Made by a program: the position numbers and the translations under genes
The notes under the pieces: generated by a model
Database searches by the model: none
The model's input: the letters and a program-made list of their open reading frames with translations, nothing else
Told to the model about the DNA's origin: nothing
In this document: positions 7,040-50,177 of the stretch, one piece after another
Numbering within the stretch: the stretch's first letter is position 1
How the letters are laid out: the number at the start of each line of letters is the position of its first letter
DNA from: an uncultured bacterium
GTDB lineage: Bacteria; Pseudomonadota; Gammaproteobacteria; Burkholderiales; Burkholderiaceae_C
Direction: 5' to 3'
Assembly: GCA_903928495.1 (NCBI GenBank)
Contig: CAIYQZ010000059.1
Span: 17,210 to 81,209 of the forward strand
DNA length: 64,000 bases

Positions 7040-10030
7040 TCAGAATGGAGTGGGTACTAAGTGATCAATCAGTTGCGCTAACTGCTCGTGGTTGATTTTG
7101 GTCTCGTACTTCACTGGAACGCCTTGTGCCTGCAATGCGGCAAAAAACCGCCGTGCGCTTTGAATCTTCCACCGCTCGCGTTCGGGCACCTCTGCCTCGT
7201 TGTCGTAGCCTTTGGTCTCCACTACTAGGTAAAGCGCCTCGGTGGCACCAGCGCGGCGTATGACATAGCCAAAATCTGGGTTGTACTTGCCAGCCGGTGT
7301 GGGAATGTTGATTTTGGGCAGCTTGGCAAACACCGTAATGCAGTCGTGCTGGGATTCGTCCACGGTGTCGCGCTCAATTTGGCTGTCCACCGGCATCACG
7401 TTTTCAACGTACAGCGATTTGGCTCGCACCACCGCATTGCCTATCGTGTGCGCTTCTTTGCCGCACAAAGCCAGTGGGATGGTTTTCAGCAAGGTGCCGG
7501 TGTTGTCGGTCAACGCCGTTGTCGCCCGGATCTCCCGCAACTCGTAACTCACCCTGTTCACCAGCAATTCGTGCACGCTGCGCAAGATCAGGTCACGCAG
7601 TGTGAGCAACGCCCGGTTCTCGTTGTGCTGAATTTGCGCAAATTTATCGGTGGGCATTCGGGCCAATACGCCGCTGATGGTGTGAATGCTCAGCCGCGTT
7701 TGGTTGGCCAATTCCCGCACAAACCCTTGCAAACTCAACACCGCATGGGGCTTGACCGTGTAGCTGTTTTGCGTGCTTTTGACTTCATGAACGCTTTGCA
7801 CATCGCTGGTGCGCGTGATGCGAACAGACAGCGGGCGGACATCAAAACTTTGCGCAATTCGGTTCAGCACGCTTCGCATGAGCCCTTCCGTATCCAGCTC
7901 GTAACGCAGCACCGCATGGCGGTTCAGGTTTTCCCAAAGGTGGCGAAACTGCTGGTAACTGACCAAGTTGGGTGTGAGGTTGGCTTGGGTTTTGTGCTGC
8001 TTATTCTTGACTTGTCCTGCGCTGTCGTAGTAAGCGTCCAGATACGCCTGCATGTTGGCAGCGTTGTGCGGCTCAATGCCCGGTATGCGCAACATGTTGG
8101 CCAAAATGCTTGCCCGCTTGGCATGGTAGGTGTCCCGGCTCATCACAAGCGTGGCTTGTCCGGTCAAGTCATCCAGCTCCACCACATCCAATGCGGCTAA
8201 AGCGTCCAACACCCGGTTGGCCAGTCGTGTGCTCAAGGCCACGCCAGCTTCGGCCAACAACTTGTCGTCAAACACCCGCGCCACCCGCTTGACGCTGTGC
8301 TGCGCAATTTCGCCCTGAATGGCAGCCACAAAATCACCCTCGCTGGCGGGCACCACCACGGTCAGGTCATTGATTTCGTCAAACGCTGCATCGTCGGCCT
8401 GCACCCGCTCCAGTTGCTGGTTCACTGCCAGGCGCAGGCCACGGCCAATTTGTTGCAACTTGCTGATTTTGGAATTGCTGGGGGCCAGTTTACACAGCGT
8501 GAAAACATTGGGGTTGTCCCAGCCTTCTTGCAGTGCCCACATGGAAAAAATGAACCTCAAATCCGTCTCAAACGACAGCAGTTTTTCCTTCTCTTGCAAG
8601 ATCAACTTGATGGCTTCTTCTTCGCCCTTTTCGCTGTGCGAGCGGGCAAAGTAGCCTTTGTGCACCTTGCCAATGTCAGTTTGGGTGCGCTGCAAATATT
8701 CACGGTAACCCTCATCGAGCTCCGGCTTGCCCAGTGTTAGCGCCAGGTGGTGACGGTAATGGCGCTCAAACGCCTCGCGCACCACCGCAGACTGGGTTTT
8801 GCCCCCCGCAGTTGCAGGCAGGTATTTGCCCACCGCATCAATGAAAAACAGCGTCAGCGACTTGATGCCGCGCTTGAACAGCTCTTCCTCACGCTCAAAG
8901 TGGTTGGCCACAGCACGCTCGATGATGAGCGATTGCACCTCATCGGCCAGCATGCCGTAGGCCGTCGGTTCACCCAGGGGCAGTGCAAAACCGTTGGTGA
9001 ACAGCAGCTCTTTGGCAGTGATTTTTTCCACCACATGGCCACTTAAAAAATCAAGCCCGGTTTGCTGACCCAGGTTGTCTTTGGCTTGCAAGCTCACGCT
9101 CGAGGCTTGCCCAGCGAGCGTTTGGTGGCCCACACGGGCAGTGCGCTCTTTTGCGCTGCCCGTCACCTCATGCAGGCACAGCACCTGCGCGCTGTCATGC
9201 CCCGTGCCCACGGTGTCCACCGTGATGCCCTTGACCAGCCGCTGGCGAAAAGCCTCCAGGCTGTCCAGCGTGTAAACAAGGTTGCGGTACTCGTCTTTTT
9301 TGAAAGTGGCCCCAAACCGGATGGTCAGCAGCGGGTTGAACTTGGCCAAATACTCCTGTACCACCTTGCCCTCAAAACGGTGCGGCTCATCAATGACGAG
9401 CACGGGCCGAATGTGCGCCAGCGCTTCCATGTAGCTTTTGGCCCGGCCAAACAAGTTGGCCTCGACGCCGCGCTTGTTGATGAGCTTGCTGTCCCCGGCA
9501 AACGACTGGTAGGTGGCCACCATCACCGACAACCCCAGGTTGGCAGCACTGATGAAGCCCTTCACCGTTTTGTCTGAGTAATTGACAACGTTGATTTTCT
9601 GGTTGTTGTACTCGCGGGCAAAAAACGCCGCCGTGGTTTGCAGGCTTTTCAGAGTGCCTTGGCGAATGGCGTTGCTGGGCACCAGCACAATGAATTTGGA
9701 CAACCGGTGCTGCTGGTGCAGCTTGTGAATGGTTTCAATGAAGGTGAAGGTTTTGCCCGTGCCCGTTTCCATCAGCACGTCCACATTCAACGCTGGGGTC
9801 AGGCTGCTGGACACTTGCACTGACCCCGTGGTCACGCCATTGGCCTCACGCACACGTGCAATGTTGGCTTTCAGCGTGGCATGCGCTTCGGCCTGCGAAA
9901 ACGTGGGGTTGGCCTGCACATCGGTGGGCGGAGCAAACCGCACATCCGCAAACACATCGGCGATCGAGCGCACCGCTTGCGCTTGGTGCGCCAGGCGGGT
10001 GTATTGGAATTGGGGCAATGCCATGGTCAC
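7040..10030 (-). CDS. res: Type III restriction enzyme, Res subunit
   Basis: 996 aa. SF2 helicase motif I METGTGKTF, motif II VIDEPHRF, and C-terminal PD-(D/E)xK (NPDFGY...VVETKG). It overlaps the mod stop by 4 nt. Confidence 0.9.
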   Translation of the reverse strand: MTMALPQFQYTRLAHQAQAVRSIADVFADVRFAPPTDVQANPTFSQAEAHATLKANIARVREANGVTTGSVQVSSSLTPALNVDVLMETGTGKTFTFIETIHKLHQQHRLSKFIVLVPSNAIRQGTLKSLQTTAAFFAREYNNQKINVVNYSDKTVKGFISAANLGLSVMVATYQSFAGDSKLINKRGVEANLFGRAKSYMEALAHIRPVLVIDEPHRFEGKVVQEYLAKFNPLLTIRFGATFKKDEYRNLVYTLDSLEAFRQRLVKGITVDTVGTGHDSAQVLCLHEVTGSAKERTARVGHQTLAGQASSVSLQAKDNLGQQTGLDFLSGHVVEKITAKELLFTNGFALPLGEPTAYGMLADEVQSLIIERAVANHFEREEELFKRGIKSLTLFFIDAVGKYLPATAGGKTQSAVVREAFERHYRHHLALTLGKPELDEGYREYLQRTQTDIGKVHKGYFARSHSEKGEEEAIKLILQEKEKLLSFETDLRFIFSMWALQEGWDNPNVFTLCKLAPSNSKISKLQQIGRGLRLAVNQQLERVQADDAAFDEINDLTVVVPASEGDFVAAIQGEIAQHSVKRVARVFDDKLLAEAGVALSTRLANRVLDALAALDVVELDDLTGQATLVMSRDTYHAKRASILANMLRIPGIEPHNAANMQAYLDAYYDSAGQVKNKQHKTQANLTPNLVSYQQFRHLWENLNRHAVLRYELDTEGLMRSVLNRIAQSFDVRPLSVRITRTSDVQSVHEVKSTQNSYTVKPHAVLSLQGFVRELANQTRLSIHTISGVLARMPTDKFAQIQHNENRALLTLRDLILRSVHELLVNRVSYELREIRATTALTDNTGTLLKTIPLALCGKEAHTIGNAVVRAKSLYVENVMPVDSQIERDTVDESQHDCITVFAKLPKINIPTPAGKYNPDFGYVIRRAGATEALYLVVETKGYDNEAEVPERERWKIQSARRFFAALQAQGVPVKYETKINHEQLAQLIDHLVPTPF

Positions 10031-41787: not shown

Positions 41788-43041
41788 TCAATGACCTGAG
41801 GGCACGTCCAGATCAGGCACAGACACTGCGATGTCTGGTGGGGCCGCGTCGTATTGCGCCACGCGAATGCGCCCACCGCCTTCGCGTTGTGCCCGCCGAA
41901 CCGCCTGCCCACAGAAATCAAGCAGGGTTTCAGACGGCATGCTTTCGTCCTCACGCCCGCCCACACCAATGCTCAGAGTGAGGTTGACCGACTGCCCGTT
42001 CCACAACAGGGGATTGGCCTTGACCGCCGCCTGCGTGCGCTCGGCCACCAACATGGCGCCCATGATGGGCGTGGCGGGCAAAAACATGAGCAGTTCGGCG
42101 TTCATGGAGCGCCCCAGCCGGTCGGTTTTGCGCAGGCCGCGCCCGAGAACACCCGTGACGTGGCGCAAGGCCGCATCACCGGCAGCAAACCCCAACTGTT
42201 TGTTCAACGCATGGAACTGGTCCACTTCGCAGACCAGCAGCGACTGGGGCTGGGGGGTGCGGCGCAGCCGGTCGCGCTCGGCGTTCAGCAAGGCCATGAA
42301 CGAGCGGATGTTGAGTGCGCCGGTGAGTTCGTCTTCGGTGTTGAGTTCGCGAATTTTGTCGACCAGCTTGAGCAACAGCAGGCCTGCCAGGCCCCCGTTC
42401 AGCAGCCCCCAGGCAGCCAGCAGCAACAGCAACTGCCAGTCGGTCATGGCCGAGAAGTGGCTGCTACCCGCCGCCGTGTGGGTCTGGGCGTACGCCCCCA
42501 GCCAGCCATGCACCAGGGTGCCCACCATGCCCGCCAGCCAGAGAAGTGCTGCCCCGGCCAACGGCGCCAGACTCCAACGTGCCACTCGCACTCCGCCCTG
42601 GGCCATCATCGACGGGAACGCCTGCTGAACGGTGACGCTGAGCACCCACAGCGATGCGCTGAAAAAGGCCAACCACGGCCCCGTGCCCGCGCCATCCAGC
42701 CAGGCCACACCCACCATGAGAACGGCCAGCGCGGGCAACATGAGCGGGGACAACACATAAGTGGGCTTGAGATCGTGCAAGGTCTGCAATCCACTGCACA
42801 GCCACTGAAGGGCAGCGAGCATCAGCACCAGCCCCAGCGCCAGCCGGTACGCAGCGGGCAAGGGTTCGAGCAACGCCCAGGGCCACCAGCTCAGACCGGC
42901 CAGGAGCACCCACCCATTGAAACCGGCGAAGTGCCGGGAGGCGCGGCTGAAAATGCGCAGTGGCCCAGCGGTCAGCGCCCAGCCCAAAACGGCCAGGGCT
43001 GCGCCCAACGTGAGGGCGTAAACCCACACCAGGCTGGTCAT
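41788..43041 (-). CDS. membrane diguanylate cyclase (multi-TM N-terminus, GGDEF)
   Basis: About 7 TM helices followed by a GGDEF domain with a variant GGRED active-site motif and RLGRS. Confidence 0.8.
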   Translation of the reverse strand: MTSLVWVYALTLGAALAVLGWALTAGPLRIFSRASRHFAGFNGWVLLAGLSWWPWALLEPLPAAYRLALGLVLMLAALQWLCSGLQTLHDLKPTYVLSPLMLPALAVLMVGVAWLDGAGTGPWLAFFSASLWVLSVTVQQAFPSMMAQGGVRVARWSLAPLAGAALLWLAGMVGTLVHGWLGAYAQTHTAAGSSHFSAMTDWQLLLLLAAWGLLNGGLAGLLLLKLVDKIRELNTEDELTGALNIRSFMALLNAERDRLRRTPQPQSLLVCEVDQFHALNKQLGFAAGDAALRHVTGVLGRGLRKTDRLGRSMNAELLMFLPATPIMGAMLVAERTQAAVKANPLLWNGQSVNLTLSIGVGGREDESMPSETLLDFCGQAVRRAQREGGGRIRVAQYDAAPPDIAVSVPDLDVPSGH

Positions 43042-44966: not shown

Positions 44967-45215
44967 TCAGGCAGACAAAACAACCCGCTGGGTCAGGTCG
45001 GGCGTGCCAGCCAGCAGCCCAGCCACTGAAAGGTCTTCGTCCAGTACATCCCAATGCAAGCCACTGCGGCTCAATTCAACTTGAGCCAGTTGCTCGGGGC
45101 TGGCATGCAACAGACGGGGGAACCAAGCCAACGGGACAGAAATTTTTCGTCCATCTGACAGGGTGACGGTCATGCTGTCTTCGTCGAACGAGACATTTTC
45201 AGGCGAAATACTCAT
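44967..45215 (-). CDS. DUF2442 family protein (putative antitoxin-like partner)
   Basis: MSISPENVSFDEDSMTVTLSDGRKISVPLAWFPRL is typical of DUF2442. AAGGAG lies 5 nt upstream of the ATG at 45215. Confidence 0.7.
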   Translation of the reverse strand: MSISPENVSFDEDSMTVTLSDGRKISVPLAWFPRLLHASPEQLAQVELSRSGLHWDVLDEDLSVAGLLAGTPDLTQRVVLSA

Positions 45216-45441
45216 TCCAGCTCCTTTCAATCAACGCTCGGTGCGTCTCAACCGCATTTTGCAGCTCACGCAAGGTTCGCGCATCCAGACCGCTGCTGCC
45301 GGCCAGGCTGATGGACGGGGCCATCCAAAACTTGGCCTCGCCCTGTGGGCTACGCACATGAATATGCATGGCTTCACGAGGGTTGCCCTCGTTGGAATAG
45401 AAGAAAAACCGGAAGTTTTTGTATCGGAACACAACGGGCAT
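45199..45441 (-). CDS. DUF4160 family protein (putative toxin-like partner)
   Basis: FRFFFYSNEGNPREAMHIHVRSPQGEAKFW is the DUF4160 signature. 80 aa. Confidence 0.75.
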   Translation of the reverse strand: MPVVFRYKNFRFFFYSNEGNPREAMHIHVRSPQGEAKFWMAPSISLAGSSGLDARTLRELQNAVETHRALIERSWNEYFA

Positions 45442-45444
45442 GCG

Positions 45445-46314
45445 TCAGCCTCCTCTTGCAATCGGGTAGATGTCCTGGACAGCGGCCCAATGTTCACGGA
45501 GTAAGCAGCCAAACTCCGCATGTGCATTGACGGCTGCTGCGTGGCTTGGTACCAAAGCATTCAACACAGTGGACAGGCGCAACGGTGGTTCGTCGTGCAT
45601 ATGCACGGTCCACTTTCCGTTCCCTCTGACCAAGTGCGCTTGGCTCCACACCCCTTGTTCAAGGTACGGAGGGATTCGGTGCATGAACCGATCTCTGTAT
45701 GAAAACACCGGGTCCAAGTCTCGGTTTTGGGGATAGATGGTTTCAATGGCTGCTCTCAATCGGGGGGTCGCCTCCCAACGCTCGACCGCGCTCCACATTT
45801 CATTCCATTTGGGCGCCTGATGGCTGTCTCTGGAACGTGATGAGAGCTCCGACCCGGGCGGTGACAACAACACATCCATCTCGTGGTGGGTTCTCCAAAC
45901 GGCAAATGCGAAGCGGCTTTTCAGCGCCATGGGCAGATTCAATGCATGGTGTGCCAATGGCAACACCACTTCCGCCAAAAGAGCCAACCGCGCTTCTGCA
46001 CTTTCGGCACCGTCCAAAGATGCCTGCCACGCCTTCAATCTGTCCAGGCAATAACCGAAGTCATTGACCTCGTTGGTCAACCGGTACCAGTGGGTCTCTG
46101 ACGTTTCCCCCCACGCATCGGCCATCGTGTCCATGGTCAGGTGACGTGAGACCGGTGCGTGAAAGGGCACTTGTGGACGCCTGACCTCTGCGGGTAGTTG
46201 ATGCAGCGCGCTGCGATACCGCGCCTGCCCAGCGCCAAGCGATGCATCCCATTTGGGGTCTGCGGGGTCAACTTCACCAAGCAAATGCTTTGCTTGTTCA
46301 GTCTCGGAGCTCAT
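45445..46314 (-). CDS. hypothetical protein (289 aa) with R-x4-H motif
   Basis: The ATG overlaps the stop of the MmeI-like gene (ATGA at 46311-46314). The region is AT-richer than its neighbours. RDRFMH lies at aa 207-212 (nt 45679-45696). No family recognised. Confidence 0.7.
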   Translation of the reverse strand: MSSETEQAKHLLGEVDPADPKWDASLGAGQARYRSALHQLPAEVRRPQVPFHAPVSRHLTMDTMADAWGETSETHWYRLTNEVNDFGYCLDRLKAWQASLDGAESAEARLALLAEVVLPLAHHALNLPMALKSRFAFAVWRTHHEMDVLLSPPGSELSSRSRDSHQAPKWNEMWSAVERWEATPRLRAAIETIYPQNRDLDPVFSYRDRFMHRIPPYLEQGVWSQAHLVRGNGKWTVHMHDEPPLRLSTVLNALVPSHAAAVNAHAEFGCLLREHWAAVQDIYPIARGG

Positions 46315-49175
46315 GGTGCAGGTGCTGCATTGAGGGTTTTCTTAACCTTACCTGCCTTCCCCACCGCCAGCAAACTGTTCAGCCGCTGGTACAGCTCAAA
46401 CAAAAACGCCACGCGCTCGGCGTCGTTTTTGTAGGCCTTTTTTCCGCCGCAGGCTTCGTAGGCTTTGTCCACGGCGGTGTCGAGTTTTTGGTGGGCTTTG
46501 AGCAGCGCCGGGGGCATGGTGAGCGGGTCGTACAGGTCGGCCAGGCTGCTGGTGGGGAACTGGGCGCGGGCGTCGAGCACGGCTTGGGCGGCGGTTTCTA
46601 TAGCCACTTGCGCTTTTCCATCAAGCGCTGGAGGCACTTTTGACACTGAATTTTCTGTTGGGTTGCAGAAGGGCCAGGGGAAGTTGTTGTAGACGATGGC
46701 GGCGGAGTAGCGGTAATCGCTTTTCAGCCGCCCGCAGGTGGTGCGCACCCAAGCGTTGTGCATGGTGCTAGAAAGGACGCCGAAGTGGAACAGGGTGGCG
46801 TCGGGCAGCACGTAAAGCTGATTTGACGCAATAACTTCTGGGGGCAAAAAGCCTATTGGGATGAAGTTACGACGCTCAGAGCTCACCGTGGGAATGGCGA
46901 GGTAATGGGTACTGGGTTGTCGAATTTCTGCAAACAATGTAGGGGTGTTAGCCAGCTTCTTGGTGGTTTCGCGGTCGCGGGATGCCCGCCACTTTCGAAC
47001 CGCTTCAATCCGTGATAACGCCACTGGCGACTGTCTCAGGCTGGTTGGTGATGCATCTCGAAACCAAAGGCACCAGCGCGGCGTGCTGTGCAACAGTTCT
47101 TCACCTCCCATGAATGGCCGAACAAATTCGGCTATCCGTGAATCTTTGGATTCCAGAGAGTCCTTTGTGCTCTTATCCAACGTGTAGTGGCCATCGTCGA
47201 GCGCGAAACTGCCGTACACCAGCCCCGGGACACCGTTGGTGGGCCTTTTTACAGAGGCAAGTAGCACATCGGGTGCATCCACCAAATAGGGGTTGATGCG
47301 CTGCGCAGGCACGGCGTGGGGCTGGCCCTTGATGTCGTCGTACTCGTGAATGATCTTGCCCGCCCGGTCGTTCAGCCCGAAGCCGACGATGACGCAGTGC
47401 ACGGCGGCTTTGCCCTTAGCTTCGTTGCTCCAGTTGAAGGTGCGGTGGGCAAAGTGAATTTTCACGCCCTGTGCCAGCAGCCAGCTCCACAACACGCCCA
47501 CCTGTTCACCTTGCGTGATGCTGTTGGTGGACACAAACGCGCACTCTGGCAGCACCGCACCTGCCGTACCTGATTCTTGGGCGAGCGCCATGTAGCGCGC
47601 GGCTTTGACGTACCACGCCGACACAAAGTCGAGCACACCAGCGCCCTGGATGTGGCCCATCACCTGCTCAAAGTCGGCTTTTTGTGCGGGGGACTGTTCT
47701 CTTTTGCCCAAAAACGGCGGGTTGCCCAGGACAAAACTGCACCGTTCCGGGGCCAGCATGTCGGCCCAGTCCAGCGTGAGGGCGTTTCCGTGCGCAATGT
47801 GGGGGCTGGTGCGCAAGGGGATGCGTGCGAAATACAGGCCAAACTCTTCGCTGACCTGCAGGTTCATTTGGTGGTCCATCAACCACAGGGCCACTTGGGC
47901 AATTTGGGCTGGGAATTCTTCAATTTCTATGCCGAAAAACTGGTCCACGTTCACGCCAATCAGGCTGTGCACGTCCACGCTGCGTTGGCCGGCGTTGCCG
48001 CTGAGTTCGTGGCTGGCGCGCAGCACGGCCAGTTCCAGCAGGCGAAGTTCCCGGTAGGCAATGACCAGAAAGTTGCCACAGCCGCAGGCGGGGTCAAAAA
48101 ACGTGAGGTGGCGCAGCTTTTGGTGAAACTCAAACAGGCGGTTGCGGTTGCCTTTGACCTTGCCAAACTCGGCCCACAGCGCGTCCAGAAACAGGGGCTT
48201 GATGAGTTTTTGGATGTTTTCTTCGCTGGTGTAGTGCGCGCCCAGGTTGCGGCGGGCCTCGGCGTTCATGATGCTTTGGAACAGGCTGCCAAAGATGGCG
48301 GGGCTGATGGCCGACCAGTCCAGCGCGCAGGCATCGAGCAGGGCCTCGCGCATGGGGGCATTGAAGTCGGCCAGGGGCAGGCTTTCTTCAAACAGCTTGC
48401 CGTTGATGTAGGGGAAGCTGGCCAGTTGCGCGTCCAGGTGGGTGCTGCGCTTGGGCTCTGCGGTGTTGAGCACCTGAAACAGTTGGGCCAGGCGGGCACC
48501 CAGGTCCGAGCCGTCGGGCTCGGTGCGCTCCTCCACAAAGGCGCGAAAGGCCTGTGCGGGCTGAAAAATGCCGGTGTCGTCGGCAAACAGACAAAACAGC
48601 AGGCGCACCAGCAGCACCTCCAGCGGGTGCTCGGTGTAGCCGCTGGCTTTAAGTGCGTCGTGCAGCTTGCCCAAAGCGGCAGCGGCTTTGACGTTGACGG
48701 GGTCTTGGGCGCGAATAACCTGGGCCTTGTAGCCGGCCAGAAAGCCGAACAGGCGCACGTGTTTGTGCAGGTCTTTCAGCGCAAATTCCAGCGTTTCGTC
48801 GGGGCGTTCTGCGGTGGCCAGGCGGTGCACGCGCATGCGGGCAAAGTCGCACACCACAATGAGTTGGGGCAAGTCGCGCTCGGCGAGACCGGGGAAGTAG
48901 CCCAGGGCTTGGTCAAACGCGGCGTCCAGGTTTTTGCCCAGCGACTTTTGCTCGACCAGCAGCATGCCAGGCCAGAACAGATCAACAAAGCCTTGACCGC
49001 CACCGTGTTTTTTGACTGCCAGCTCGAAGGTCGCCACGCGTTTGTCGGTGATGCCGAAGATTTCGAAAAACGCCAGCCAAAAGGGTTTGGCATGGCTGTT
49101 TTCGTCCGTTGCATCGGCCCAGGTGCGACTGAAGCTCAGTGCACGGCCCTTTATCTCGTTCCAGCTCAAAGGCAT
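46311..49175 (-). CDS. MmeI-family Type IIL restriction-modification enzyme (fused endonuclease, methyltransferase and specificity domains)
   Basis: N-terminus MPLSWNEIKGRALSFSRTWADATDENSHAKPFW... closely parallels MmeI. Nuclease motif D65-X9-E75-X-K77 (VDLFWPGMLLVEQK), SAM motif FFDPACGCGNFL, and catalytic GNPPFLG. 954 aa. Confidence 0.9.
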   Translation of the reverse strand: MPLSWNEIKGRALSFSRTWADATDENSHAKPFWLAFFEIFGITDKRVATFELAVKKHGGGQGFVDLFWPGMLLVEQKSLGKNLDAAFDQALGYFPGLAERDLPQLIVVCDFARMRVHRLATAERPDETLEFALKDLHKHVRLFGFLAGYKAQVIRAQDPVNVKAAAALGKLHDALKASGYTEHPLEVLLVRLLFCLFADDTGIFQPAQAFRAFVEERTEPDGSDLGARLAQLFQVLNTAEPKRSTHLDAQLASFPYINGKLFEESLPLADFNAPMREALLDACALDWSAISPAIFGSLFQSIMNAEARRNLGAHYTSEENIQKLIKPLFLDALWAEFGKVKGNRNRLFEFHQKLRHLTFFDPACGCGNFLVIAYRELRLLELAVLRASHELSGNAGQRSVDVHSLIGVNVDQFFGIEIEEFPAQIAQVALWLMDHQMNLQVSEEFGLYFARIPLRTSPHIAHGNALTLDWADMLAPERCSFVLGNPPFLGKREQSPAQKADFEQVMGHIQGAGVLDFVSAWYVKAARYMALAQESGTAGAVLPECAFVSTNSITQGEQVGVLWSWLLAQGVKIHFAHRTFNWSNEAKGKAAVHCVIVGFGLNDRAGKIIHEYDDIKGQPHAVPAQRINPYLVDAPDVLLASVKRPTNGVPGLVYGSFALDDGHYTLDKSTKDSLESKDSRIAEFVRPFMGGEELLHSTPRWCLWFRDASPTSLRQSPVALSRIEAVRKWRASRDRETTKKLANTPTLFAEIRQPSTHYLAIPTVSSERRNFIPIGFLPPEVIASNQLYVLPDATLFHFGVLSSTMHNAWVRTTCGRLKSDYRYSAAIVYNNFPWPFCNPTENSVSKVPPALDGKAQVAIETAAQAVLDARAQFPTSSLADLYDPLTMPPALLKAHQKLDTAVDKAYEACGGKKAYKNDAERVAFLFELYQRLNSLLAVGKAGKVKKTLNAAPAP
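46600..46641 (+). repeat. 42-bp motif copy E (inside the MmeI-like CDS, C-terminal region)
   Basis: ATAGCCacttgcgcttttccATCAAGCGCTGGAGGCacTTTT with inner hairpin GCGCTT/AAGCGC. It encodes SKVPPALDGKAQVAIE. Confidence 0.85.
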
Positions 49176-49192
49176 GGCGCACTCCCTGACTT

Positions 49193-49220
49193 TTTATAGC
49201 TACAAAGTATTGCCAATCAA
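49193..49220 (-). promoter_or_regulatory. candidate sigma70-type promoter for the MmeI-like operon (inside motif copy D)
   Basis: The minus strand reads TTGATT-16 nt-TATAAA, ending 17 nt before the ATG, with AGGGAG in between. Confidence 0.4.
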
Positions 49221-49236
49221 TCGACCCAAAGCAAAT
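49196..49236 (+). repeat. 42-bp motif copy D (intergenic, upstream of the MmeI-like gene)
   Basis: ATAGCTAcaaagtattgccAATCAATCGACCCAAAGCaa. The 5' half is well conserved and the 3' half degenerate. Confidence 0.55.
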
Positions 49237-49248
49237 AGATGATTGAAA

Positions 49249-50034
49249 TCAGGCCTCGAGGGGTTTGAACACTTTGAGCCACTTCAGCGCAGGCAAGCCC
49301 CAGCGCACCTGTATGTCGGCGGCGCGGGCTTCCAGCTCGGCACGGCTGGGGCGGCTGGGCGTGCGCTGGGCCAGCACCACGGTGTTGCCTTCTTTGGTGG
49401 GTTTGAACAACCACACCGCGTCGCGGCCGAAAGCTGCGGCAATTTCTTCCACGCTGTCGGGGTATTTGTTGCGCTCGCCGAACAGGTTGACCGTCATGCA
49501 GCCGCCTTCGCTCAGCACATTGCGGCAGTCTTTGTAGAAGTCAAAGCTGTCGAGCACCGGGGCTGCGGCCTCGTGGTCATAGAGGTCAACCTGCAGCGCA
49601 TCGACGTTGCCTGTCCACTCTGGGCTCCGGATTTCCACCCCTGCGTCGGCCAGCACGATGCGCAGCTTGGAATCGTCGGGCGGCAGCTTGAACAGGAAAC
49701 GGCAGGCCGAAATGACCTGCGGGTTCAGCTCCACCGCCGTGGTGCAGATCTTGAGCTTTTTGCGGCAAAACTTGGTCAGCGCTGCAGCACCCAGACCGAG
49801 CTGCATGGCGTGTTTTTTGCTGATTTTGGCGGGATCGTTGAACAACAGCCACGCCATCATGCGCTGCACGTATTCCAGCTCGATGTCGTAGGGCTCGTCC
49901 AGCAACATGCTGCCCTGCACCCATTCGGTGCCCAGGTGCAGGCAACGCACGTTGCCGTAATCCGAAAAATTGACCTCTGGCAGTGCCGGTGCGGCGGACT
50001 GACGGGGGCGTGAGGCAGCGGCCCGGGTGCTCAT
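49249..50034 (-). CDS. spermidine synthase-like SAM-dependent methyltransferase
   Basis: LQLGLGAAALTKF (motif I-like), VDLYD, and a class I MTase fold pattern. ATG at 50034. Confidence 0.7.
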   Translation of the reverse strand: MSTRAAASRPRQSAAPALPEVNFSDYGNVRCLHLGTEWVQGSMLLDEPYDIELEYVQRMMAWLLFNDPAKISKKHAMQLGLGAAALTKFCRKKLKICTTAVELNPQVISACRFLFKLPPDDSKLRIVLADAGVEIRSPEWTGNVDALQVDLYDHEAAAPVLDSFDFYKDCRNVLSEGGCMTVNLFGERNKYPDSVEEIAAAFGRDAVWLFKPTKEGNTVVLAQRTPSRPSRAELEARAADIQVRWGLPALKWLKVFKPLEA

Positions 50035-50177
50035 GTCGTCACCCTGCGTGTGTGTGCTGACAACACAAAACCGGACATTTGCACGCGATGCAAGCCACAC
50101 GTTGTCGCGCAACGACTTGCCGTCACAGAAACCGGGAAATACTGCATAGGTGTTGTTTTGACTTGAAAGGATTGATT

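Follow-up and report, generated by a model that had tools for sequence, protein, structure and literature searches.

Our analysis indicates that four tightly packed genes from an uncultured bacterium of the Burkholderiaceae_C (contig CAIYQZ010000059.1; the 64,000-nucleotide stretch that was analysed is called the window) probably form a horizontally mobile mini defence island made of three separable modules. These modules are an MmeI-family restriction-modification (R-M) enzyme, an exchangeable HEPN-like effector encoded by a 289-amino acid (aa) gene (p289), and a toxin-antitoxin (TA) pair of the DhiTA family composed of a DUF4160 and a DUF2442 protein. MmeI enzymes, DhiTA and the linkage of HEPN proteins to R-M systems are already known. 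What is new is the p289 family, its linkage to a Type IIL enzyme, a frame running from MmeI to DhiTA with a swappable middle, and the unexplained sharp ends of that frame. The first-pass annotation of this DNA did not recognize the four-gene combination as a named system, and this holds: PADLOC has no model for it, although two of the three modules already have names. PADLOC-DB v2 gave no match for p289, DUF4160 or DUF2442.

The block spans positions 44967-49175 and all four genes lie on the minus strand, as seen from the open reading frame (ORF) list and the sequence. The MmeI-family gene (46311-49175, 954 aa) is followed by p289 (45445-46314, 289 aa, belonging to a family without annotation), the DUF4160 gene (45199-45441, 80 aa) and the DUF2442 gene (44967-45215; 82 aa from its ATG, or 87 aa if a TTG at 45230 is the start). 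The MmeI stop codon overlaps the p289 start in the ATGA at 46311-46314, p289 and DUF4160 are 3 nucleotides (nt) apart (45442-45444), and DUF4160 and DUF2442 overlap by 17 nt (45199-45215). The packing, overlaps and spacing are as previously annotated.

Evidence that the block moves, and that its middle is exchanged, comes from related loci, all of which are metagenomic and belong to a narrow clade. Two of these (L001 and L002), on contigs that hold only the C-terminus of MmeI, have the layout of the window: MmeI C-terminus, ATGA, p289, DUF4160 and DUF2442. Ten sister loci (L021-L030), found by way of a 91%-identical DUF4160, read instead MmeI, ATGA, a 256-aa gene, DUF4926, DUF4160 and DUF2442. 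This alternative cargo lies at 6984-7993 in L021 and is also present in L022-L030. The idea that the 256-aa gene is a diverged p289 was rejected (hhalign probability 7.7%, BLASTP E = 1.1), and its product has no match in Pfam, PADLOC or PHROGs. DUF4926 has been proposed as the immunity partner of BECR ribonuclease (RNase) toxins (bioRxiv 10.64898/2026.08.28.747851). This suggests that the alternative cargo is a toxin module as well, and that the 256-aa protein may be an undescribed toxin.

The ends of the block are sharp. L021 (4062-8450) and L022 (4050-8450) are 97.9% identical at the nucleotide level and have unrelated flanks, and their shared span begins 1 nt ahead of the MmeI ATG and ends ~25 nt short of the DUF2442 stop. 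The window shares both ends, at 49176 and 44986. Further, L001, L003 and L021 represent a single chromosomal site, bounded by a GGDEF-EAL gene (left) and an MFS gene (right) with 82-96% nucleotide identity in the flanks, and this site holds p289 in L001 and L003 but the 256-aa gene and DUF4926 in L021. On the MmeI side the cargo junction falls ~73 nt short of the stop codon, and on the other side it coincides exactly with the DUF4160 ATG. In all, three unrelated chromosomal contexts contain the block, which runs from the MmeI ATG through DUF2442. Each cargo, whether p289 or the 256-aa gene with DUF4926, was seen in two contexts, and one context is common to both. Since both cargoes occur at one site and each also occurs elsewhere, cargo type and location assort independently. 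The presence of a block with sharp boundaries in three unrelated contexts also supports the earlier proposal that its genes are not neighbours by chance. The GC content of the block is 58.6%, and that of the adjacent 10-kb flanks is 63.7% and 64.9%. No notable direct or inverted repeats, integrase or transposase were found at the block ends, no integrase lies within the block itself, and no tRNA gene was found in the window. Conserved flanks (here the MmeI C-terminus and DUF4160) around unrelated alternative cargo are also a feature of the P2/P4 phage defence hotspots (PMC9122126). There the flanks are phage core genes, whereas here they are defence genes within a block of 4.2-4.4 kb.

Several neighbouring genes were also noted. 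Directly behind the block in L021 (8519-9642) are HTH_66/DUF433 and PIN_10 genes, a probable further TA pair, which is absent from the same site in L001. In the window, downstream of an MshE/GspE ATPase gene, positions 41788-43041 encode a membrane-anchored protein whose C-terminus resembles a diguanylate cyclase (GGDEF type) by eye. GGDEF-EAL genes flank the block in the two other contexts (L021 and L022), and the resemblance may be coincidence. The upstream neighbour at 49249-50112 had been labelled spermidine-synthase-like. This label is weak, as its Pfam match to Spermine_synth is sub-threshold (E = 0.007, 16.4 bits against a cut-off of 22.9), and the exact protein was absent from a collection of 15 billion proteins.

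The first module appears to be a complete enzyme. Domains MmeI_N, MmeI_hel, MmeI_Mtase, MmeI_TRD and MmeI_C are all above the Pfam threshold in the 954-aa protein (E 1e-25 to 7e-88), and the PADLOC model REase_MTase_IIG covers residues 3-933 with E = 0. The protein thereby has the architecture of the family, in which an N-terminal nuclease, a helical spacer, a gamma-class N6A methyltransferase, a target-recognition domain and a C-terminal domain follow one another. On the minus strand, the translation contains the nuclease motif D65-X9-E75-X-K77 (DLFWPGMLLVEQK, 48945-48983), S-adenosylmethionine (SAM) motif I (FFDPACGCGNFL, 48066-48101) and motif IV NPPF (47712-47723). Thus, the D-X9-EXK, FxDPACGxGxFL and NPPF motifs that had been described as intact are so when the translations are read. 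Based on these domains and motifs, we predict that the protein functions as a self-contained Type IIL/IIG restriction-modification enzyme. Members of this family cleave ~20/18 nt from an asymmetric site, and methylation of a single strand protects the host. The window enzyme resembles them in its five Pfam domains, its nuclease and SAM I/IV motifs, its comparable length and its variable target-recognition domain, and does not itself differ from them; what is unusual is the downstream gene that overlaps its stop codon. The window MmeI protein and those of the sister loci (L021-L030) are 75% identical, and nucleotide homology between the genes is lost only across residues ~637-789, within the target-recognition domain. 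Change in this domain is the usual way in which MmeI enzymes alter their specificity.

The last two genes can be assigned to a TA family with experimental precedent. Their products match DUF4160 (E = 1.3e-17, 64 bits against a cut-off of 23) and DUF2442 (E = 1.6e-23, 83 bits against 23.9) in Pfam, and in the sister loci the proteins are 89-91% and 78-85% identical, respectively. In Dickeya dadantii 3937, dhiTA encodes a DUF4160 toxin and a DUF2442 antitoxin that were shown experimentally to be a type II TA system, for which a new toxin/antitoxin superfamily was proposed (PMC8198452). There the toxin gene comes first and the two genes overlap; the toxin inhibits growth, the antitoxin neutralizes it and the complex autoregulates its promoter, and DhiTA works as a stand-alone pair in both Dickeya and E. 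coli (PMC8198452). A comparative study from 2025 stated that DUF2442 follows most DUF4160 proteins and treated DUF4160 as an effector domain (PMC12065111), and a DUF4160/DUF2442 pair on a Thermus plasmid raises plasmid persistence (PMC12724237). The window pair shares with DhiTA the Pfam pair, the toxin-first order and the overlapping frames (Table 1 of PMC8198452). It differs in sitting 3 nt behind another gene, p289, so any promoter of its own would fall inside p289. From this likeness, the two proteins are predicted to be a DhiT-type toxin and a DhiA-type antitoxin of the DhiTA family, and the 'toxin arm' that had been suggested for the block agrees with a validated type II TA family (PMC8198452).

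With the aim of placing p289, we searched for relatives and domains. The protein has no match in Pfam, NCBIfam, PADLOC or PHROGs, no ATPase/P-loop domain, and no helix-turn-helix or other DNA-binding domain of Pfam; PADLOC run on 71 family members gave nothing consistent. A word-indexed search of 5.8 billion proteins returned only four close relatives, at 64-88% identity, while an exhaustive profile search yielded 180 representative clusters at E <= 1e-3, mostly of 250-290 aa and aligning over residues ~70-280. Relatives of the p289 clade were found in neither IMG/VR nor PLSDB, and the wider family has one provirus match and seven plasmid matches in these collections. Ratios of nonsynonymous to synonymous substitution rates (dN/dS) of 0.15-0.35 indicate that p289 is under purifying selection. 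It is a member of a real, unnamed protein family.

Conservation in this family centers on the motif YRDRFMHR (45676-45699, minus strand), an Rx4H arrangement that includes R207 and H212. Among the 71 aligned sequences of a first set, W96, H212 and G221 never vary, and N81, N84, E115, P128, R207, P244 and L271 almost never do. A second set, made up of 68 more distant members and sharing none with the first, retains just two invariant columns, the R and the H of [FY]R[ND]xxxHR, which points to a catalytic role for these residues. Rx4-6H is the signature of HEPN RNases (PMC3710099), and the p289 family has this spacing with a polar residue after the R. Weak matches to HEPN_Cthe2314, Apea and RiboL-PSP were seen in 5/71 members of the first set, all sub-threshold. 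The family consensus has HEPN_Cthe2314 (PF18730) as its top Pfam match, aligned over the motif region with E = 0.0026 and 18.2 bits against a threshold of 27.1. In the second set the same family was matched by two of the 68 members (best E = 5e-4), again sub-threshold, and was the only Pfam family matched by more than one member. HEPN families are the only recurrent weak Pfam matches in two independent sets of the p289 family, with HEPN_Cthe2314 both the best and the only recurrent single match. The published conserved context of HEPN_Cthe2314 is given as 'none detected' (Anantharaman et al., PMC3710099).

Several observations weigh against a HEPN assignment. Every HEPN profile match to the family is below the Pfam gathering threshold, and the window protein itself has none. 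An AlphaFold2 (AF2) model built from 5 sequences had a mean predicted local distance difference test score (pLDDT) of 63; one built from 48 sequences reached a pLDDT of 79 and a predicted template modelling score (pTM) of 0.79, and is mostly helical with one beta-hairpin. Foldseek searches with both models against the PDB, and with the second against BFVD, gave no match at E < 0.1, HEPN or other, and a profile search of PDB sequences with the p289 family returned noise only. Further, the motif lies in a low-confidence loop with prolines after it, whereas the canonical HEPN motif starts a long helix. On balance, the motif, its conservation and the recurrent matches suggest that p289 probably belongs to the HEPN group.

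The genomic locations of p289 relatives are consistent with the earlier suggestion of an abortive-infection-type arm, since the family is tied to mobile elements and defence islands and has a HEPN-like Rx4H signature. Relatives at 20-27% identity occur in varied mobile or defence contexts. They adjoin an AbiGi-like gene in an integrative and conjugative element (ICE; L004-7), lie near TIR and ISL3 genes (L008), share an island with SIR2, a methyltransferase and pP_pnuc (L009/10), adjoin BrnA (L013) or the integrase of a prophage-like element (L015/16), and are found in a provirus from IMG/VR (L111). Relatives on plasmids adjoin recombinase, Tn3, TIR and YhaN genes, and all are annotated 'hypothetical'. 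MmeI, DUF4160 and DUF2442 are absent from all listed loci of these 20-27%-identical relatives, and no partner gene is conserved among the loci. A conserved divergent partner was considered and rejected, as the upstream 665/666-aa genes of L004 and L009 are unrelated. In L111, the family member (7152-7907) is followed by a 251-aa protein with a HEPN-like 'RNKLAHG' motif. The closest outgroup of p289 (P0005 in L011, 41% identical) lies behind a 452-aa gene and ahead of the MNT-type genes PDC-S09 and PDC-M05A. The 452-aa protein (L011:36-1394), 12 nt upstream of P0005, is without annotation, and by eye its C-terminal 'PDIIV...IVECTTK' resembles a PD-(D/E)xK nuclease motif.

Two loci retain p289 where MmeI has been lost. 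In L003 (9743-12908), a decayed locus, two deletions leave only MmeI codons ~3-30 and a short C-terminal piece. The MmeI residues 'DPLTMPP' run straight into p289, whose full ORF is kept and which has gained a new start from MmeI Met887. In place of DUF4160 there is a second, divergent DUF4160/DUF2442 pair; the orthologous DUF2442 comes after it, and an AAA_21 (AbiEii-like) ATPase gene comes next. The dN/dS between the p289 genes of L002 and L003 is 0.20. The second case, L012, has an intact homologue (P0006, 35% identical), and a fragment of MmeI (residues 67-88, 82% identity) lies ~140 nt upstream of it. The persistence of p289 without MmeI argues against a toxin held in check by MmeI alone.

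We were also interested in what follows MmeI genes more generally. A metagenome scan gave 80 loci with MmeI relatives at 48-69% identity (L031-L110); two run off the contig, leaving 78 for analysis, and the window and L021 controls behaved as expected. Genes for the p289 family, DUF4160, DUF2442, the 256-aa protein and DUF4926 were found within 4 kb downstream at 0/78 loci. This leads us to reject p289, DUF4160 or DUF2442 as general companions of MmeI at this level of identity. An expected co-occurrence of the small genes with MmeI-like genes in other genomes is thus seen in L001 and L002, and for DUF4160/DUF2442 in L021-L030, but does not extend to the 78 more distant relatives. At 54 loci the sequence continues for at least 1.4 kb downstream, and at 14 of them an ORF of at least 150 aa starts on the MmeI strand no more than 40 nt from the MmeI stop. 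These 14 coupled ORFs show no relation to one another, and six of them overlap the stop. The Fic, Mrr, NERD and NACHT genes each have a -4 overlap, and other coupled genes encode SIR2, DUF3800, HNH/NUMOD and ATP-grasp proteins. Examples are found at L057:6975-7622, L069:3694-4608, L070:5796-6674 and L102:8030-12085, NACHT-STAND being among the families. Tightly packed, diverse effector-type genes therefore often follow MmeI genes (14/54), a frequency that may be no higher than for any defence-island gene.

Signals in the window suggest how the block may be expressed. The 73-nt intergenic leader upstream of the MmeI gene (49176-49248, minus strand) contains, by eye, a -35-like TTGATT (49215-49220) and a -10-like TATAAA (49193-49198) separated by a 16-nt spacer. 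The promoter-like hexamers noted earlier at the upstream end are thus visible; however, a strict sigma-70 scan found no site in the region, including the leader and the sequence upstream of DUF4160, so a promoter in the leader is only plausible. The leader is not conserved in L021 or L022, where homology begins 1 nt before the ATG. Shine-Dalgarno sequences precede MmeI (AGGGAG, 49182-49187), DUF4160 (AGGAGG) and DUF2442 (AAGGAG), while no AGGAG-like sequence is present in the 25 nt upstream of p289. Without a Shine-Dalgarno of its own, p289 should depend for its translation on ribosomes terminating at the MmeI stop. A terminator-like hairpin with a T-run, a weak consensus match, lies at the 3′ end of DUF2442 (44981-45000, minus strand); it is only suggestive, because 15 such matches were observed in the region against 7.1 +/- 2.9 expected.

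Based on these observations, we propose that a single transcript, probably starting upstream of the MmeI gene, would cover the block. The MmeI enzyme would act as the first line, methylating its own site and cutting unmodified incoming DNA. p289 would be the exchangeable part, in a cargo hotspot bounded by the C-terminus of MmeI and the TA pair, its translation tied to MmeI through the ATGA overlap and the missing ribosome-binding site, two features visible in the sequence itself. Most likely, p289 is an RNase of the HEPN type that consists of one protein, regulates itself and serves as an abortive-infection-like effector, the RNase function being inferred. The DUF4160/DUF2442 pair probably stabilizes the cassette by post-segregational killing, or may add an abortive arm. 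The modules would travel together without any biochemical need for each other. This agrees in part with the composite defence module envisaged by the first-pass annotation: R-M, Abi-like and TA parts do travel together, but the exchanged slot and the solitary relatives speak against an integrated four-component system. There are points against the island of separable modules as well. The block is transferred whole and with sharp ends, and the stop/start overlap is kept for two unrelated cargo genes (p289 and the 256-aa gene); together these features could mean that functional coupling, and not just co-carriage, has been selected. In addition, the related loci are metagenomic and belong to a narrow clade. 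We nevertheless consider separable modules to be the best explanation.

The main alternative, although we consider it unlikely, is a guard arrangement like that of PrrC, in which p289 would be produced at a fixed ratio to MmeI, kept latent by binding to it, and freed as an RNase when phage anti-restriction inactivates MmeI. It would then be a second line of defence particular to this R-M enzyme. In favour of this, translation of p289 is tied to that of MmeI by the ATGA overlap, also present in L001 and L002, and by the lack of a Shine-Dalgarno sequence, and the 35%-identical homologue beside an MmeI remnant in L012 indicates a link older than the window clade. There is also strong precedent, as no fewer than 16 HEPN clades are linked to R-M systems, for which a PrrC model was proposed (Anantharaman et al. 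2013, PMC3710099), and effector genes (Fic, Mrr, NERD, NACHT) overlap the MmeI stop in 6/54 of the more distant relatives. Like the R-M-linked HEPN RNases exemplified by PrrC-EcoprrI (PMC3710099), p289 is a mostly helical Rx4H protein encoded beside a restriction enzyme gene in a mobile block. However, its partner is a single-chain Type IIL enzyme and not a Type I system. PrrC and RloC have an N-terminal ABC-ATPase fused to the HEPN nuclease, whereas p289, with only 289 aa and no Pfam match to an ATPase, is without this regulatory domain, and the profile support for its HEPN membership comes from sub-threshold matches. p289 also survives loss of the R-M gene: in L003 and L012, which have lost MmeI, it is still intact and evolves under purifying selection, and a toxin silenced only by MmeI should not tolerate such a loss. 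Its relatives at 20-41% identity are solitary, with neither MmeI nor DhiTA, and an unrelated cassette fills its slot in the sister loci.

We also considered that p289 may not be a defence effector, being instead a mobile-element, anti-defence or maintenance gene, or a regulator (an MmeI controller), that hitch-hikes in a recombination hotspot and whose Rx4H motif would have some other function. This would be in keeping with the lack of a significant match to any characterized family or structure and with the relatives found in ICEs, plasmids and prophage-like elements beside integrases, recombinases and transposases, a setting that fits any accessory cargo. We regard it as improbable: across the 68 distant members nothing is invariant except the R and H of a motif of the RNxxxH type, which points to catalysis, the HEPN matches alone recur in both member sets, the neighbours are repeatedly defence genes (TIR, SIR2, AbiGi-like, MNT/PDC-S09, PDC-M05A and BrnA), and no DNA-binding domain such as a helix-turn-helix was detected. 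An obligate four-component machine, for example one in which DhiA or DhiT regulates p289 or MmeI, is the composite defence module of the first-pass annotation taken in its strictest sense. It would explain the tight packing and the co-transfer of the block, but seems very unlikely indeed. p289 is replaced in L021-L030, DUF4160 is replaced in L003, MmeI is lost from L003 and L012, the small genes accompany none of the 78 MmeI relatives, and DhiTA stands alone elsewhere (PMC8198452).

A broader and more speculative reading, which we hold to be doubtful, is that MmeI-type enzymes are hubs that license second-line effectors, with the stop-codon overlap as a docking slot where various toxins would be coupled by translation to the enzyme, and the effectors firing upon phage anti-restriction. 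Its candidate effectors, on the same doubtful footing, would be p289, the 256-aa/DUF4926 cargo, Fic, Mrr, NERD and NACHT. If this were true, the block of MmeI, cargo and DhiTA would be a self-stabilizing mobile chassis for enzyme-effector pairs, and p289 would found a family of HEPN RNases that guard a Type IIL enzyme.

In conclusion, if the modules are independent, as is most likely, the block is an ordinary, neatly packaged defence island. About 180 'hypothetical' clusters can now be placed among the likely HEPN-type defence effectors, with a testable motif in R207/H212. The block also provides a natural chassis, in which a restriction enzyme and an addiction module surround an exchangeable toxin slot, and further effectors could be mined between MmeI C-termini and DUF4160. 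Finally, it offers a small system in which to ask whether restriction enzymes and abortive-infection effectors are wired together or only co-carried, a question that dates back to PrrC-EcoprrI.

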